A stretch of DNA of 64,000 nucleotides from Arcicella sp. (GTDB lineage: Bacteria > Bacteroidota > Bacteroidia > Cytophagales > Spirosomataceae). The DNA lies in the NCBI GenBank assembly GCA_034519515.1, contig JAXHOK010000068.1, positions 219,421-283,420 on the forward strand. Direction: 5' to 3'. Each line of letters opens with the position of its first letter. Positions within the stretch are counted from its first letter, which is position 1. Positions 29,075-41,472 of the stretch are shown here, in pieces. The position numbers and the translations under genes were made by a program. The notes beneath the pieces were generated by a model that saw only the letters and a list, made by a program, of their open reading frames with translations, did no database searches and was not told where the DNA came from.

Positions 29075-29857
29075 ATGAAATGTTATTATTCATGTTTAAT
29101 CTTTGTGATGTCTTTTTTAAGTAATACTTTTTCACAAAATACAAGGCTTTCTGACCACAATTCAATAGGTTGGTATAATTACTTCGGCACGTTTAAATTG
29201 TCCAATAAATTTGATTTACACGCTGAATATCAATGGCGTAGAGATAATGTTATTACGGATTCACAACAAAATTTGTTGAGAGTCGGGATAAATTACAACC
29301 TAAATCCAAGGGTATTATTTAGAGCTGGCTATGCCTTGATAGAGACTTTTCCTTATGGCGAATATCCCATCAATGGCTTAGGGAGAGATTTTACTGAACA
29401 TCGAATATTTCAAATGGTGCAACTGTCTCATAAAGAGGGAATCGTGGATTTATCACACCGTTTTATGTTGGAGCAAAGGTTTGTGGGAAGATACAGTTCC
29501 GCCAGTGTTATGAGCGAAGACCAATTTCCCTTACTCAATCGGATGCGTTATATGGTGAGGGTGCAAGTACCGCTGGGAGGAACAGAAATTAAAGACAAAA
29601 CGCCTTATGTGGCAGCGTATGATGAGATTTTGGTGGGTTTTGGAGAAAACGTAAATGCCAATGTTTTTGACCAAAATAGATTAGGTATTTTGTTGGGATA
29701 TCGCTTCAATAAAAATACCAGAATCGAAGCAGGGTATCTCAATCAAATCGTGCAGTTGGGGCGACAGATAAACGGGCAGAATGTTTTTCAATACAACAAT
29801 GGGTTGATTATTAACACAAATTTCAATTTTGATTTGACGAAAAAATCAAAGCTATAA
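29075..29857 (+). CDS. DUF2490 outer-membrane beta-barrel protein
   Basis: EYQWRR, EHRIFQ, HRFMLEQR, RMRY, FDQNR motifs. Confidence 0.85.
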   Translation: MKCYYSCLIFVMSFLSNTFSQNTRLSDHNSIGWYNYFGTFKLSNKFDLHAEYQWRRDNVITDSQQNLLRVGINYNLNPRVLFRAGYALIETFPYGEYPINGLGRDFTEHRIFQMVQLSHKEGIVDLSHRFMLEQRFVGRYSSASVMSEDQFPLLNRMRYMVRVQVPLGGTEIKDKTPYVAAYDEILVGFGENVNANVFDQNRLGILLGYRFNKNTRIEAGYLNQIVQLGRQINGQNVFQYNNGLIINTNFNFDLTKKSKL

Positions 29858-29862
29858 AAACG

Positions 29863-29907
29863 AAAGTAGCTGAATGTATATAAAATCATATATATTCAGC
29901 TACTTTT
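29863..29907. terminator. bidirectional terminator hairpin
   Basis: AAAGTAGCTGAAT / ATTCAGCTACTTT; second stem ATAATCAGCTAAATC / GATTTAGCTGATTAT follows. Confidence 0.7.
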
Positions 29908-30025
29908 AGTTTTATAATCAGCTAAATCTATGTTTTTTAGGGATTTAGCTGATTATGAGGATTTAAAAGATTTATTTAACAAAGATTTAATTTACAAAAT
30001 TGAAAACTAATATTAAAAATCAACA

Positions 30026-30421
30026 TTATTCTGTTTCTGCAATATTGATAAAATTAAAAGAAGGTAGCATAATTGGATTATAACCACCATTTAAAGTTAA
30101 GTTTGAAATAAATGCTCTAACATAAGGAAAAGCAATGGCAGGAGCACTAATTTTTACAAATGAAGAGTTTTTAAAAACTTCATCAATTAGTGTATTAGTT
30201 TCAAAATGTGCTGTAACCTTTACATTCAAATTAAATTCAGCTTTGTCATCATTTATTGATAAATCAAAAATTATGGCAAACGATTTTTGATTTTCTTCAT
30301 CGAATCCAGTTCCGAATTTAAGATTAGTTTCTAATTCATTTGTGATTTCCTTATCAAATGTTTTTACATTCAGAAGTAAATCTGTTACCTGTATGTTTAC
30401 TAATTTAATCTGTGTATCCAT
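30026..30421 (-). CDS. SecB-like chaperone (TAC-type)
   Basis: 131 aa; APAIAFPYVRAFISNLTLNGGYNPIMLPSFNF is the SecB C-terminal signature. Confidence 0.9.
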   Translation of the reverse strand: MDTQIKLVNIQVTDLLLNVKTFDKEITNELETNLKFGTGFDEENQKSFAIIFDLSINDDKAEFNLNVKVTAHFETNTLIDEVFKNSSFVKISAPAIAFPYVRAFISNLTLNGGYNPIMLPSFNFINIAETE

Positions 30422-30426
30422 AGTTA

Positions 30427-30657
30427 TTATGCTGCCATTGCGTACTGAGTATTACCAGTTAAAGCAACCTTCTCTTTATTATCAACTAAAATATTTTGAG
30501 TTAAAGTAGTATTTTTAACCTTAACTGTTTCACCACTGACGAGTTGAGCAATAGTATCTCTATATTGGTCAAATTCAATCCATTTCAATAAAAAGTCCTT
30601 ATCAAATGAATTGAGTTTCTCTGTGAATTTCCTACTAAGTTCTTGATAGTTAAGCAT
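30427..30657 (-). CDS. putative antitoxin with SsrA-like C-terminus
   Basis: 76 aa between toxin-like and SecB-like genes; ends ALTGNTQYAMAA. Confidence 0.7.
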   Translation of the reverse strand: MLNYQELSRKFTEKLNSFDKDFLLKWIEFDQYRDTIAQLVSGETVKVKNTTLTQNILVDNKEKVALTGNTQYAMAA

Positions 30658-30661
30658 TTTA

Positions 30662-31210
30662 TTATTGTTGTTCTTCTAAATATAGTGCAAAGTTACTAAC
30701 ATTTTTAAGATTAAAGACTACAACTTGAATTCGTTTTTTGAAATATAAATCTGGAATTTCTGAATAAATACGGTCGCTTTTAAATGAATTTACTGGTTTG
30801 TCATCGTACATGATACATTCAACACCAATATTATTCCAAATATTATCTGCAAGAAATTTATGTACTTGTTCCAAGGTTACGTTTACATTTTTTTGCTTAA
30901 AATATTCAATAGTTTCTTCAATTTTCGTTCTGAAGAAGAAGTACCCTTCCTCATCAAAAACTGTATTAAGGCACTTTTCAATATTAATATCCGCTTTGTA
31001 AATATCGTAATAACCTGTGGCTCTTTTCTTGAAATCCTCTCCCCAATAATGAGCAAACTCAATTTCAGTCCAAAAATAATAACCCATACCTAACCATGCT
31101 GTTTTACCCGTACACTTAATTGGCTCTTCAAGAGCATGAGCATTTGACCTATATTCTTGGGTATGATAACCAATCAAATATGGCTTATTAGAAATACTTT
31201 TTTTCTCCAC
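30662..31210 (-). CDS. putative ADP-ribosyltransferase-fold toxin
   Basis: GYHT ... WLGMGYYFW ... AHYWG ... RIQVVV resembles an H-Y-[E/Q] ART triad; GTG start. Confidence 0.7.
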   Translation of the reverse strand: MEKKSISNKPYLIGYHTQEYRSNAHALEEPIKCTGKTAWLGMGYYFWTEIEFAHYWGEDFKKRATGYYDIYKADINIEKCLNTVFDEEGYFFFRTKIEETIEYFKQKNVNVTLEQVHKFLADNIWNNIGVECIMYDDKPVNSFKSDRIYSEIPDLYFKKRIQVVVFNLKNVSNFALYLEEQQ

Positions 31211-31306
31211 TTTAAAATAAATATATGAATAATATGGTAAATCTATGATAGTTATGACAATGTTCCAATCATTTAATTAAATTTTGATAACATATTCAAT
31301 TATTGA

Positions 31307-32506
31307 CTAAAACCGCCTAAAAGCCATCTCCGCTACCGTCTTCCCGATTGATAATGAGGAAGTTGCGGCTGGTGATGGGGCGTTGAGAATGTTGATGACT
31401 TTTTCGTCTTCGATGATGGCAAAATCATCTAAAAGCCCTCCTGTACGGTCGCAAGCCTGAGCCCGTACACCCGCACCGCCTTCGATAAGGTCAGATTCTT
31501 GGATTTCTGGAATCAACTCTTGCAGGGCTTTGGTGAAGGCGGTTTTTGAGAAACTTCTGTACATTTCGCCCAAACCCATTTCCCAATATTTTACCGCCAC
31601 TTTCTGGAATCCTCCCCACGTGAGGGTTTCCCATAATTCTTTGGCGTTGATGTCCATTTTTTTGTAACCCTCTTTTCGGAATGCCAGAACAGCATTTGGT
31701 CCCGCTTCCACGCCGCCCTTCATCATGCGGGTAAAATGTACGCCCAAGAAAGGGAAATTGGGGTCTGGCACGGGATAAATTAGGTTTTTTACCAAATAAT
31801 GTTTCTCGGGACGAATCTTGAAATATTCCCCACGGAAAGGTACAATCCGAACATCAATTGGATTATCCTGAGACATTTGAGCCACTTTATCCGAGTATAA
31901 TCCTGCACAATTTATCACCAATTTTGTTTCGTAAGTGTTGCGTTCCGTTTTCACAATCGACAACGTATGACCTTTGGTAATGCCCGTTACTTTTTCGTTA
32001 AATTGTAGGTCAGCACCCAAATTACGCAGTTTATCTGCCATTTTTTGGCTCATTACTTTATAGTCCACAATGCCCGTTTGCGGCACAAATAAACCCTCCA
32101 AACAAGACACATAAGGCTCATATTCCTTCACTTCCGAAGCCGATATTTTTCGTACTCCTGCCAAACCGTTCTGTTGTCCACGCACAAAAAGCGTGTCCAA
32201 TTGTGGGATTTGGTCAGCCTTGGTTGCCACCACTACTTTACCCGTAATTTCGTAGGGAATATTTTCTTGCTGACAAAATTCTATCAACTGATGATAACCT
32301 TGAATACAGTTGGTTGCCTTTAAAGAACCTGGTTTATAATACAGCCCAGAGTGAATTACGCCCGAGTTGTTCCCCGTCTGGTGAATGGCTACTTCCCGTT
32401 CTTTTTCCAGTAATAAAACCTTCAATTCGGGACGTTGTTCCTTGATTCTGAGGGCAGTAGCGAGTCCCACAATTCCTCCGCCGATGACAATAATATCGTG
32501 TTGCAT
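31307..32506 (-). CDS. lhgO: L-2-hydroxyglutarate oxidase
   Basis: GGGIVG, HQTGNNSGVIHSGLYYKPGSLKA, FLGVHFT, NAPSPAATSSL. Confidence 0.93.
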   Translation of the reverse strand: MQHDIIVIGGGIVGLATALRIKEQRPELKVLLLEKEREVAIHQTGNNSGVIHSGLYYKPGSLKATNCIQGYHQLIEFCQQENIPYEITGKVVVATKADQIPQLDTLFVRGQQNGLAGVRKISASEVKEYEPYVSCLEGLFVPQTGIVDYKVMSQKMADKLRNLGADLQFNEKVTGITKGHTLSIVKTERNTYETKLVINCAGLYSDKVAQMSQDNPIDVRIVPFRGEYFKIRPEKHYLVKNLIYPVPDPNFPFLGVHFTRMMKGGVEAGPNAVLAFRKEGYKKMDINAKELWETLTWGGFQKVAVKYWEMGLGEMYRSFSKTAFTKALQELIPEIQESDLIEGGAGVRAQACDRTGGLLDDFAIIEDEKVINILNAPSPAATSSLSIGKTVAEMAFRRF

Positions 32507-32516
32507 ATCTCAAAGT

Positions 32517-32716
32517 TGGTGAACGGTGAACGGTAAAAGGTGAACGGTTCACGGAGGAAGTTCACATCAAATAATTCACAATAAATCGCTCACAATAAAA
32601 ATTTATAAAGTATTAAAAATCAGTTAGTTAAAAATAAATATTAAATTCAAATCCGTTCACTTTTTACCCCGAACCCTTCTGTGTCCAGTCCCGTTCGCCT
32701 TTCACCGTGAACCGTT
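32517..32716. repeat. inverted heptamer tandem arrays (TGAACGG / CCGTTCA)
   Basis: TGAACGG-like units at 32517-32552 and complementary units at 32653-32716. Confidence 0.65.
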
Positions 32717-33474
32717 TAACCTTTTGAAGACCAGATTTCCCAAGCCTTTTCCGCCTGACCGTGCAACATTTCTAAACCAAAATGTACACCTTTTACTCCA
32801 TGCTCTAACCCCTTTTTCAAGAACATTGTTTCCAAAGGATTATAGACAATATCATACAATAAATGGTTGTTAGTCAGCAGATTATAAGGAATTTCTGGGA
32901 AAGAATCCACCTTCGGAAACATTCCTAAAGGTGTAGTATTAACGATAAAAAGATGCTCTTGCATGACTGCCTCCGTGAGTTCATCGTAGGTGATGGTATT
33001 TTCTTCTTTTTTTCGAGAAACGTATTGCGTTTGTAAACCTAAATCTTGCAAGGCTTGAATAATTGCTTTGGCAGCTCCTCCTTTGCCCAAAATTAAGGCT
33101 TTTTTGGGTTTAATCTCTTGAAAATCAGTCCATTGTTCCAACGTCCAACGAAAACCCCAATAGTCGGTATTGAAACCTTTGGTGATGCCATCTTCCATGA
33201 TTTTGATGGTATTGACTGCTCCAATTTTCAAGGCGGCTTCGTCCACCGAATCCAAAAAAGGAATGATGTTTTGTTTGTGCGGAATGGTTACGTTTAAGCC
33301 CCGCAAATTAGGAGATTGTGCTTTTAGTAAAGTTGGAAAATCTTGGATATTTTCTAATTCAAACTTTTCATAGACGTGTGTATCCGAGAGGTTCATTTTT
33401 TCAAATTTCTCCGTAAAATATCCCTTTGAAAAAGAATGACCCAAAGGAAAGCCAATTAAACCGTATGTGTACAT
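32716..33474 (-). CDS. aroE: shikimate dehydrogenase
   Basis: GFPLGHSFS, GLNVTIPHK, GAVNT, NTD, NTTPLGM, DIVYNP, GLEML. Confidence 0.93.
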   Translation of the reverse strand: MYTYGLIGFPLGHSFSKGYFTEKFEKMNLSDTHVYEKFELENIQDFPTLLKAQSPNLRGLNVTIPHKQNIIPFLDSVDEAALKIGAVNTIKIMEDGITKGFNTDYWGFRWTLEQWTDFQEIKPKKALILGKGGAAKAIIQALQDLGLQTQYVSRKKEENTITYDELTEAVMQEHLFIVNTTPLGMFPKVDSFPEIPYNLLTNNHLLYDIVYNPLETMFLKKGLEHGVKGVHFGLEMLHGQAEKAWEIWSSKG

Positions 33475-36433: not shown

Positions 36434-37816
36434 TTATTGATCAACTTTATCTTCTATAATTTTCTGAACATCAGTAGGGACATTCGATAAAAAGTCAAAA
36501 CCTGTCAATCGTTCTATTTCATCAACTGATACTCTATATTTCTTCCAACTATGACTTCCAACTGAATTTTGATTAGGAATATTCACGGCAATAATTCGGG
36601 TATTTTCATTGATTCGTTGCACGTCATTTTGTCCGATGGGCAGTACCACAATAATTTTCCAAAGTGATGCTGGAACGGCGATATTTTTACTTTTTCCGAT
36701 ACTTCGAGTAAACCCATTTGTTCCTTCACCGCCTTCACCAATTGTTCCCGCAATGATATAAATTTCGTTGCCTTGTTGGGTTAGCGTTCTGCCGTAATCT
36801 TCTAAATTTTTCCAAATTCCACGGTTATGGTCGGGTGCTTGGGGAACTATGTTGGTCATTAAAAAAGTCTCTTGGTTATCCCCTAAACTGCCGTCACGGT
36901 CGTCCGAGGGGCATAAATGTCCACGGTCGAAGCCAGTTTCGGCATAATCTCTGGGGTTTACGTCATACCAATTGTTGGGTAAATCAGAATCAGGACGAAA
37001 GTCATTTTGTCGTTCCGTTTCTCCTTTCCAAGCCGTACTTAAATGCCACGAAACCCAGTTGGCGATGTTCTTATTTTTGTTGTAGGAAAGCGTATAACCC
37101 GTTTTTTTCATCAAAAAATTATCCGAATAAGCAATATTACTGACGGCATTGGATGGATTGCCCAAACCCAAATTATCATCCCGACTTGCCACGGTTGAAC
37201 CGTTTTCTACGGGTATAGAATTAGTACTTGTTCCGTAAGTAATAATCGAAATATCATCAATATTTAAGCGATTAACCGAACCATCCGTTTTGCGAATTTC
37301 GATGCGAGCGGCTTGAGTAGTATTAACGTTAAAAGTGGCATCACGCAAGGATTTTTCAGAGGCTGTCAGGGTTGAGCCTACTTGTTGCCAAGAGTTTCCA
37401 GCGTTCGTAGAAATCCATAATTCAAAGGTACTATTTTTGTCTAATTGATAAACTCCGTATTTGAAACGCACTTGCTGAATACCACTCAGGCAGTCAAAAT
37501 TCATGGTTAATTTTGCTGTTTCCTTCATTCTAACAGCTTTTGTGCCATTTTTTTGGTCGTTTTCAGCTCCGCCCATCACGGCATTATCCAAATTCCATTG
37601 TCCTGACGAAGCGGTAATATTTCCGTTTTCATATCGAATTTTGGAAGCCCCATCAAAACCTTCTGGGAAATTACGGGCAACTTTGGTTTGCACAGACGGT
37701 GGCGTAGGTGTAGGTCTGGGCGTGGATGAACCCGAACCCGTGGAAGGCATATACACCCCTACACAAGAAGAAAACGAAATGGAAATACTGAGTAAAAGGG
37801 TGATTTTTTTAAACAT
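36434..37816 (-). CDS. lipoprotein DNA/RNA non-specific endonuclease (NucA/EndoG-like) with N-terminal beta-rich domain
   Basis: Lipobox FSS-C, Pro-rich linker, DRGHLCPS, TNIVPQ, NRGIW. Confidence 0.9.
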   Translation of the reverse strand: MFKKITLLLSISISFSSCVGVYMPSTGSGSSTPRPTPTPPSVQTKVARNFPEGFDGASKIRYENGNITASSGQWNLDNAVMGGAENDQKNGTKAVRMKETAKLTMNFDCLSGIQQVRFKYGVYQLDKNSTFELWISTNAGNSWQQVGSTLTASEKSLRDATFNVNTTQAARIEIRKTDGSVNRLNIDDISIITYGTSTNSIPVENGSTVASRDDNLGLGNPSNAVSNIAYSDNFLMKKTGYTLSYNKNKNIANWVSWHLSTAWKGETERQNDFRPDSDLPNNWYDVNPRDYAETGFDRGHLCPSDDRDGSLGDNQETFLMTNIVPQAPDHNRGIWKNLEDYGRTLTQQGNEIYIIAGTIGEGGEGTNGFTRSIGKSKNIAVPASLWKIIVVLPIGQNDVQRINENTRIIAVNIPNQNSVGSHSWKKYRVSVDEIERLTGFDFLSNVPTDVQKIIEDKVDQ

Positions 37817-40625: not shown

Positions 40626-40789
40626 GAAGCCGTTTTAAAATATATTCTGAATAAAGTCTGATTGTATTTTTTGAGTAGTGGAATCATATTTTTTTAAGGA
40701 ATATACAGCGTATCTTGTGTAAAAAATATGGTTTCGATAGTCAGAATAAGACAATCAGAATTTATCGTAAGATATTTTAAAACAGCTTC
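40626..40789. mobile_element. 164-bp MITE with 18-bp terminal inverted repeats and TAA target duplication
   Basis: GAAGCCGTTTTAAAATAT ... ATATTTTAAAACAGCTTC (1 mismatch); TAA at 40623-40625 and 40790-40792. Confidence 0.8.
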
Positions 40790-40882
40790 TAAGACTGGAA
40801 ACATCTCAAAAGTTTTTTTACCCGCAATGGATATTGTTTTAAGAAGTTCTTTAAAAAGATATAAGTAAATGTTTTAATTTTA

Positions 40883-41472
40883 GAAAGGGGAAGGGGGGGG
40901 GGGGGAGGGGAGGAGGGGGAAGGAGGGAACACGAAAAGGAGAGGGAAAAAAGAGGAGAAAGAAGAGAAATAAGGAAGGAGGAGGGGGAAAAAAAGAAATA
41001 GGGAAAAAGGAGAATTAGGAAAGGAGAAGAAAAAAAAAGAAAAAAGAAGGTATATAAAAACAGAGAAGAGACGAATATCCGAAAAAAAGGAAGAGAAAAA
41101 GGGCGAATGAATAGAGGGGAATAGCTGGGGAAGAGGAAGGAAAAAAGGATAGAATTCAAAGGGGATGAGTAAGGGGATTGGGAGTAATAAAAAATAAAAA
41201 AAAGCAGAGGAATAAAAATGGGGAAAAGGAGAATAGGGGAGGATATCAGGGGGATATAAGCAAGAGAATCTGAAGGGGATGGAAAGAGAGGGCTCAGACA
41301 AAGAAAAGATAGCAAGACATGAAGGGGGGAATAGGGAAAAAACTAAGGGAGAAAAAATAGAGAAGAGAAATAAGAGGTATGAAAAATATCAAGAATAGGG
41401 GGAATAAAACAAAAGAGCAGAAAAACTGGAAAAAAAAGAAAAAAATATGAAAAAAAAAAAACAAAAAAAAAA
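40883..41472. other. purine-only low-complexity tract, probably corrupted sequence
   Basis: About 590 bp almost entirely A/G on the + strand with long G and A runs and no periodic unit. Confidence 0.7.

Follow-up and report, generated by a model that had tools for sequence, protein, structure and literature searches.

We wondered why the antitoxin of a small bacterial operon should end in exactly the peptide with which its host's transfer-messenger RNA (tmRNA) tags stalled protein chains. The operon lies in a 64,000-nucleotide stretch of DNA (the window) on contig JAXHOK010000068.1 of Arcicella sp. (GCA_034519515.1, a genome that is 81.6% complete). On the minus strand it encodes a predicted toxin of 182 amino acids (aa) with a GTG start (gene 1, window positions 30662-31210), an antitoxin of 76 aa (gene 2, 30427-30657) and a SecB-like chaperone of 131 aa (gene 3, 30026-30421). 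We read it as a toxin-antitoxin-chaperone (TAC) module of Bacteroidota that resembles CmdTAC of E. coli, likely an abortive anti-phage system, in which the antitoxin's end, a copy of the host tmRNA tag, would serve as a built-in degron. The probability of this reading is in our estimate about 0.7. Toxin and chaperone belong to known families and the operon itself is a divergent form of a system already described; the host-matched mimic of the tmRNA tag is a real, repeated feature for which the papers searched gave no earlier description. The nearest homologues and the type of tag likewise place the host in the Bacteroidota.

ARAGORN finds a single tmRNA in the genome (G000:C40:184616-185013), with the tag GNTQYAMAA, and the final nine residues of the antitoxin (last nine codons plus stop at 30427-30456, minus strand) are identical to it at 9/9 positions. 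This is the distinctive feature of the locus, and it had been overlooked by the sequence-only reading, an earlier description of this DNA made from its letters. Compared with the 12629 open reading frames (ORFs) of at least 60 aa in the genome, the tag gave one match at 9/9, one at 8/9 and no more than 4/9 in all others. Unlike the tag proper, which is added to a stalled chain, the antitoxin tail is encoded in a normal gene, and its codons differ synonymously from those of the tmRNA (3 of 8 degenerate codons are identical). The first alanine of the tag is uncoded and carried by the tmRNA; relatives of the antitoxin often add it. The 8/9 match belongs to a second TAC-like operon of the same genome (L141:5127-6504, that is G000:C49:128127-129504, minus strand, G+C content 31%). 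It is a 167-aa helix-turn-helix (HTH) protein ending AGNTPYAMAA, an antitoxin unrelated to that of the window, and it is accompanied by a toxin candidate of 144 aa that is weakly RelE/Gp49-like (TM 0.56) and by a third gene encoding 145 aa that is weakly SecB-like (hhalign probability 35%, E = 4e-4).

What kind of module carries this tail? Gene 1 matches the PADLOC model PD-T4-9_A (PDLC04068; E = 9e-16, a moderate 56.5 bits, residues 15-169) as well as PDLC04069 (E = 6.1e-9), and gene 3 matches PD-T4-9_C (E = 7.6e-35). PD-T4-9 is CmdTAC (bioRxiv 10.1101/2024.02.24.581848); here and below, statements on published work refer to the accessible portions of the papers. The SecB signature that had been claimed for gene 3 was confirmed (PF02556, E = 5.8e-11, above the cut-off), and gene 3 is the sole PF02556 match in the genome. 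A housekeeping SecB operon was rejected, as gene 3 scores far below the cut-offs of all NCBIfam housekeeping secB models and the locus was not seen in up to 1.5 kb after the neighbouring gene in 14 genomes of the genus. The three genes are tightly packed and A+T-rich, as had been noted from the sequence: the gaps between them measure 4 and 5 bases, and the operon has a G+C content of 29.0% against 38.0% for the genome, a value equally low in 0.8% of 8235 genome segments of the same size.

The gene order is conserved. Among related loci, taken as the best 80 of 288 genome stretches encoding a toxin relative, a SecB-like gene lies within 1.5 kb after the toxin in 71; the toxin ORF is short and probably broken in three of these. 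Of the nine loci without a downstream SecB-like gene, several sit at contig ends. In L053, L058 and L075 the toxin ORFs are short (36, 117 and 101 aa) beside an intact antitoxin and chaperone, and probably represent decayed toxins. Toxin relatives are also present on 37 viral contigs; in one group of viral contigs (L215-L227, L230-L239) the SecB-like gene mostly stands directly upstream of a distant toxin relative, a different gene order. A PD-T4-9_C search of 300 genomes gave one match, and with PD-T4-9_A, 400 genomes from another class yielded five weak matches, four of them without the downstream T-A-C order. The fifth lies at a contig end in G021 (titled Thiotrichales), where the toxin relative (L021) and, at the start of another contig (L368), an antitoxin-like ORF ending YDFSIAA with a SecB-like gene are probably one split locus.

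Searches of Pfam, NCBIfam and PDB sequences returned no match for gene 1, PHROGs gave only weak matches, to proteins of unknown function, and tblastn with the toxin against annotated phages and plasmids found nothing. Its homologues comprise 108 close ones and 503 representatives at E <= 0.001. The motifs pointed out in the sequence-only reading were located at residues 15-17 (YHT), 39-47 (WLGMGYYFW, given there as WLGxGYYFW) and 161-165 (IQVVV). Across 70 aligned toxins H16 and Y45 are invariant and Q162 is present in at least 90%, and H16 and Y45 are also kept in a separate eight-sequence alignment with distant toxins. By position and conservation, these three residues would form an H-Y-Q triad that fits the HY-[EDQ] triad of CmdT.

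The structure model of the toxin has a predicted local distance difference test (pLDDT) value of 91.3. The top rows of a wide fold search with it were mostly chains of the ADP-ribosyltransferase (ART) superfamily, namely NatT (8qnl; Z 8.5, root-mean-square deviation (rmsd) 3.5, 138 residues aligned), MbcT (6fkg; Z 8.5, rmsd 4.0, 135 aligned), ParT (6d0h; Z 8.3, rmsd 4.1, 137 aligned), PARP-1 (5ds3; Z 8.1, rmsd 4.2, 122 aligned) and diphtheria toxin (Z 7.6, rmsd 4.3, 128 aligned). A cyanophage protein (Z 8.9, rmsd 4.0, 142 aligned) is counted as tied with the first four. As ART-superfamily chains dominate the neighbours, the modelled fold of gene 1 is ART-type. This part of our reading faces three objections. 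The Foldseek comparison that had been proposed as a check on the ART fold gave no match at E <= 0.001, although the rows listed were mostly PARP, diphtheria-type and RES-type ART folds. Values of Z 8-9 barely exceed the level that the tool calls common. Finally, toxins of the RES type, which degrade nicotinamide adenine dinucleotide (NAD), share the top rank in this search.

The last objection leads to an alternative in which the TAC architecture is the same and the toxin acts on something other than mRNA, either by degrading NAD+ like RES-type toxins or by modifying protein or DNA. Such a toxin would suit the tie of NatT, MbcT and ParT at Z 8.3-8.5 and the moderate bit score of the CmdT profile, together with an identity of ~19-23% to the two toxins from viral loci with the highest PD-T4-9_A scores; it is harder to square with a candidate triad that is invariant at H16 and Y45, nearly so at Q162 and in keeping with that of CmdT, or with a profile match to the CmdT family when no RES family profile in Pfam matches gene 1 at E <= 1, RES toxins being nonetheless among the fold neighbours. 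NatT, MbcT, ParT and PARP-1 share the modelled fold (Z 8.1-8.5) at 4-10% identity and are two-gene toxin-antitoxin systems or eukaryotic enzymes, unlike the module of the window. We consider a target other than mRNA unlikely. In the CmdTAC-like reading, mRNA would be the substrate by analogy with CmdT.

The antitoxin was modelled as two helices (residues 4-17 and 20-40) followed by a low-confidence tail, which is likely the chaperone-addiction region. The sequence-only reading had regarded a very short antitoxin without a DNA-binding domain as an oddity. This view does not hold, since CmdA has the same build of two helices and an unstructured tail (PMC11618068) and the PADLOC model PD-T4-9_B is 77 positions long. 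Gene 2 matches nothing in Pfam or NCBIfam and gave no usable ESM Atlas match. Prediction of the toxin-antitoxin complex reached a score of 0.81, against 0.00 for the best of three controls; the runs share at least 67% of contacts, with a partner pLDDT of at least 62. The mark for such complexes is reached by 116 of 157 solved pairs and by 2 of 215 mismatched ones, counts that apply roughly here. In the predicted interface the antitoxin helices lie on toxin residues ~79-130, a helical subdomain, away from H16, Y45 and Q162, which would fit an antitoxin that helps to fold and hold the toxin; the tail makes no confident contact. CmdT alone is indeed non-toxic because it needs CmdA to fold, and the toxin-antitoxin pair kills (PMC11618068). 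It is therefore unsafe to take non-toxicity of gene 1 as a refutation, as had been suggested. With the PD-T4-9_A and PD-T4-9_C matches, the ART-type fold, the conserved order and the predicted interface, the earlier view of the operon as an ART-type TAC system is sustained.

Antitoxins could be assigned in 77 of the 80 related loci, with a median length of 84 aa, and 69 of the 77 end in Ala-Ala. How might such an end work? Modelled on E. coli CmdTAC, a SecB-like tetramer would bind the loose tail of the antitoxin and hide the tag, until a phage structural protein pulls the chaperone off. Once exposed, the tag would direct the antitoxin to Clp proteolysis, and the toxin thus released would ADP-ribosylate mRNA, stop translation and abort the infection. 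CmdT itself ADP-ribosylates mRNA at N6 of A in GA and blocks translation, with a capsid protein as trigger and a need for ClpXP, according to the accessible text. A full host-type tag would allow faster removal of the antitoxin, and the commoner loose end, an aromatic residue followed by x-x-AA, would be the weaker signal. The genome encodes clpX. SspB (PF04386) was not found in it, an absence that a genome 81.6% complete does not establish, so the tag reader would be either the unfoldase itself or an undescribed adaptor. The peptide would come under selection because the tag-reading machinery of the host would read beyond the terminal Ala-Ala; in E. coli, SspB and ClpA read upstream tag residues too (PMC10862746).

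Alternatively, the tag might also be the chaperone's handle. The SecB-like protein would then bind the tag tyrosine, and a surge of tagged proteins, caused by phage-driven mRNA decay or by ribosome stalling, would compete the antitoxin off, making the module a sensor of mass ribosome rescue and not of one capsid protein. This idea would account for a tail that changes with the tag of the host. It draws on Y72, the only aromatic residue after the helices in the window's antitoxin, on the aromatic residue at -5 in 57 of 70 tails ending in Ala-Ala, on the chaperone addiction (ChAD) region of E. coli HigBAC, in which Y214 of 218 (-5) is among four predicted chaperone anchors (bioRxiv 10.1101/2024.02.24.581848), and on the finding that a ChAD-bearing competitor can fire a TAC in vivo (PMC6377645). 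However, ClpX degrons likewise favour an aromatic residue at -5, with the consensus [LFYW]-[LAR]-L-A-A (PMC10862746), and no chaperone role is therefore needed. Moreover, tagged proteins are made constantly, which would carry a risk of firing in uninfected cells, and the characterised triggers are phage structural proteins (PMC11618068; bioRxiv 10.1101/2024.02.24.581848). We hold a handle function to be distinctly improbable and return to the tag as degron.

If the tail is read by the host, it should follow the host's tag. A tmRNA scored over the cut-off in 66 of the 80 genomes and in 14 it did not; G020 was dropped (its tag-like match lay outside the tmRNA hit) and G075 gave no tag, and seven tags were read by pattern where ARAGORN had miscalled or missed them. 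This left 62 locus-host pairs including the window. Ten tails match the tag of their own host at 9/9, 12 at 8/9 or better and 13 at 7/9 or better. Ten exact matches compare with a mean of 2.05 in 20000 permutations (maximum 8), and the mean tail-tag identity is 4.34 versus 3.69 +/- 0.12 when permuted. After removal of nine close-kin rows and one two-tag genome, 6 of 52 pairs still match at 8/9 or better versus 1.8 expected (p = 6.5e-4), and at the variable positions -8, -7, -6 and -3 these pairs have a mean match of 1.17 versus 0.71 +/- 0.10. The matched tails read GENNYALAA in flavobacterial hosts and GNTQYAMAA in Chitinophagaceae. These data show that the antitoxin tail tracks the host tag above chance; most relatives keep the loose aromatic-x-x-AA end, and the full match is optional. 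One bin, G074 (L120, L148), contains two tmRNAs with the tags GEYNYAMAA and GENNYALAA, owing to contamination or a prophage copy.

A second set of loci was picked by the chaperone model alone and comprised 16 loci in 15 of 150 genomes of the family. Upstream of the chaperone gene, nine ORFs end in Ala-Ala and three are similar with another end, two loci are at contig edges and two lack a candidate. The nine tails, counted by hand, match the tag of their own host at 8, 8, 8, 7, 7, 7, 7, 4 and 3 of 9 positions.

The full match could nonetheless have no function of its own, being an old copy of the tag frame acquired by recombination or a product of shared ancestry in host clades, with only the terminal Ala-Ala being of consequence. 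Most tails are indeed loose in loci that look intact, some tails (that of the window included) carry at -10 a Thr or an Ile, as the reading frame of tmRNA genes often does at this place, and some tmRNAs encode an in-frame Ala. The codons tell against a copy. In 11 matching tail-tag pairs, 28 of 91 degenerate codons are identical, where codon use in the loci themselves would predict 31.9 +/- 4.0. Synonymous codons are therefore not shared more often than expected, nothing points to recent copying, and we rejected recent DNA copying from the tmRNA gene. Codons that drifted while the amino acids were kept imply purifying selection on all nine residues. A lack of function is also at odds with variable positions that track the host, with the rare tag GEGNYALAA matched in L019, and with the occurrence of the full-tag state across antitoxin families that are unrelated and for another type of tag as well. 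Shared ancestry fares no better in a toxin tree of 74 rows, which includes only loci that have both an antitoxin and a toxin ORF of 150 aa or more: the full tag appears in 19 scattered rows, with no fewer than 10 changes of state. We also rejected a common origin of the GNTQYAMAA tail among these toxins, as the five GNTQ[YF]AMAA rows do not form one clade (p-AU 1.7e-54, for a group that was named from the tails after the tree was seen). Further, of the 22 tails that have Gly at -9, 15 carry Ala just before it, at -10; in the G-type tmRNAs of the hosts in this set, the codon at this place mostly specifies Asn, Thr or Ile and in no case Ala. We judge a functionless match to be a rather remote prospect and keep to the reading of the tail as a selected degron.

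Several observations nevertheless weigh against this reading or narrow it. As many as 49 of the 62 pairs match at 6/9 or less, the four nearest toxin relatives of the window have loose tails, 4 of 16 tails within 7/9 of any tag fit the tag of another host better, and the close-kin rows among the 62 pairs are non-independent. The second set contains no 9/9 tail and the tags of that family share G...YAMAA, therefore it demonstrates matching at the family level only. The window's own antitoxin has Thr and not Ala at -10, and the argument from alanine is weakened because an in-frame Ala precedes the tag in three tmRNAs of the family and in many phage tmRNAs. In 400 other Bacteroidota genomes the pattern of Ala plus tag had one match, itself a tmRNA; full-tag tails are therefore rare overall. 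Gene 2 does not match any PD-T4-9_B model, a search that found nothing in the genome at E <= 10 and matched 0 of 15 aligned antitoxins, and we therefore file the module as CmdTAC-like with its own antitoxin family. Lastly, the toxicity, substrate, chaperone dependence and phage defence that we propose are borrowed from E. coli CmdTAC by analogy.

The tail is not confined to this toxin family. When metagenomes were searched for Ala plus tag plus stop, 26 hits were obtained, none of which was called a tmRNA. Eighteen precede a SecB-like gene, six a weakly SecB-like gene and two lie at contig edges. The toxins upstream are ART-like, HEPN-like or HTH-linked; one of three HEPN-like toxins tested passed the Pfam cut-off. 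Modules with a HEPN-like toxin, a partner of 120-200 aa and a SecB-like gene, with tag-like tails, were seen in L153, L155, L156, L158, L160, L161, L164, L165, L170, L175, L177, L190 and L193, and further in L261, L262, L267-L269 and L273. Three partner proteins tested had no significant Pfam match, and no description of a HEPN-type TAC turned up in a literature search. The pattern also had 21 hits on viral contigs, of which four are TACs and six received a tmRNA call. With the proteobacterial-type pattern there were 76 viral hits, of which 64 were called tmRNAs and nine more are ORF-less with a like context; the remaining three are coding ends directly 5' of SecB-like genes, reading AANDERFALAA or AANDENYALAA, the latter being the E. 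coli tag (PMC10862746).

Three observations stand beside these searches. In L168 and L173 a 212-aa ORF fuses an ART-like toxin to an antitoxin tail AGNTQYAMAA, where the near-identical L163 has two genes; the joined ORF may have arisen naturally, by fusion or deletion, or may be an artefact of assembly. A two-gene module at L191:1027-1533, presumably akin to HicAB, has a second protein that ends AAGDNSYALAA, lacks a SecB-like gene after it and gave a weak HTH match only in Pfam, so tag-like tails may perhaps not be limited to TACs. Phage tmRNAs (L178, L182, L185, L188, L195, L197 and most of L292-L367) carry tags such as GNAEYAMAA and AANDEVFALAA, with an in-frame Ala before or within the tag.

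How does the module compare with known systems? The order T-A-C and the toxin and chaperone families are shared with CmdTAC of E. coli ECOR22 (PMC11618068) and O112ab:H26 (bioRxiv 10.1101/2024.02.24.581848), as are the modelled ART fold, the candidate H-Y-Q triad and an antitoxin of two helices with a loose tail and terminal Ala-Ala. In contrast, the antitoxin is 76 aa long and escapes PD-T4-9_B (CmdA of O112ab has ~121 aa), the host belongs to the Bacteroidota, the module occupies a variable chromosomal slot with no prophage seen, and the antitoxin ends in the whole host tag where the papers, as far as accessible, note LAA or AA only. PMC11618068 notes LAA, its accessible main text does not mention ssrA or tmRNA and a supplement has one unrelated mention of ssrA; the bioRxiv report likens the terminal AA to the key element of the SsrA tag. 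HigBAC TACs (M. tuberculosis, PMC5105189, PMC6377645; E. coli NT1F31) share the SecB-like gene after the antitoxin and a loose C-terminal tail in which an aromatic residue stands close to the end, and that of M. tuberculosis has a ClpX-type terminal degron; they differ in an RNase toxin, an HTH antitoxin and termini Val-Ala or Leu-Pro with no tag copy in the accessible texts. A search of paper titles and abstracts, with subscription papers mostly outside its scope, found no host-matched full tags on antitoxins.

By itself, the operon extends a family of mRNA-targeting defence systems to Bacteroidota, a modest gain. What a specialist would not expect is a whole tag kept under peptide selection in a subset of modules, often with the untemplated Ala. 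It implies that tag recognition in Bacteroidota reads 9-10 residues, makes full-tag tails natural reporters for finding the tag reader, and predicts that a mobile TAC may need its tail re-tuned after a host switch. Ala plus tag plus stop also serves as a search key, as TAC-like loci stand behind 24 of the 26 metagenome hits, HEPN-type modules included. One could go further and speculate that unrelated TAC antitoxin families, with either tag type, repeatedly evolved full host-tag mimics that were re-tuned for each host since the tag is both degron and chaperone handle, that the chaperone senses a flood of tmRNA-tagged proteins so that TACs monitor ribosome rescue, and that the mimics point to an undescribed tag reader in Bacteroidota. 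We offer this as a speculation that is more probably wrong than right by a wide measure.

The module is accessory DNA, inserted in a slot of variable content. A 399-aa flavin adenine dinucleotide (FAD) oxidoreductase ends 96 bases 5' of gene 1 (stop at 31307), which agrees with the position assigned to the operon in the sequence-only reading; the name lhgO used there is its own, and Pfam gives DAO. The sequence 3' of this oxidoreductase differs among 14 same-genus genomes, only four distant ones being alike, and the module was not seen in any of the 14 (0.7-1.5 kb available after the oxidoreductase stop). Most relatives in the genus hold other small genes, an ATPase or other cargo in the slot (L241-L254), and none of the 80 related loci has the window's neighbour genes. 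We think it very unlikely that the module is a working TAC serving stress response or selfish addiction instead of phage defence: the TAC of M. tuberculosis has been discussed as stress-responsive (PMC8165232) and the ORF list for window positions 20000-42000 shows no phage genes (family scans covered part of the ORFs), but both characterised members of the toxin family defend against phages (PMC11618068; bioRxiv 10.1101/2024.02.24.581848), slot content varies across the genus and relatives lie on viral contigs.

The A+T-rich leader between the oxidoreductase stop and the toxin start spans 96 bases (31211-31306, minus strand). TAnnTTTG is a promoter element of Bacteroidota; none was found in 31151-32900, and sigma-70 promoter matches are at chance level (22 versus 18.3 +/- 3.8). 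Two neighbouring hairpins, both A+T-rich, were found 3' of the chaperone gene (29853-29956, no strand assigned), between it and a convergent DUF2490 gene, with arms at 29853-29881/29888-29916 (86% paired) and 29914-29928/29942-29956 (100% paired). The hairpins that had been reported after gene 3 are thus present, and their role as terminators stays putative; the pair is possibly a two-way terminator common to the DUF2490 gene. Elsewhere in the window, a pyrimidine-rich low-complexity stretch with F/S/P/L-rich ORFs, which may be an assembly artefact, occupies positions 40789-41464. The window also encodes an archaeal-type ATPase of 474 aa (PF01637; 23626-25050, plus strand) and a protein of 460 aa that carries a non-specific endonuclease domain (PF01223) at its C-terminus (36434-37816, minus strand).

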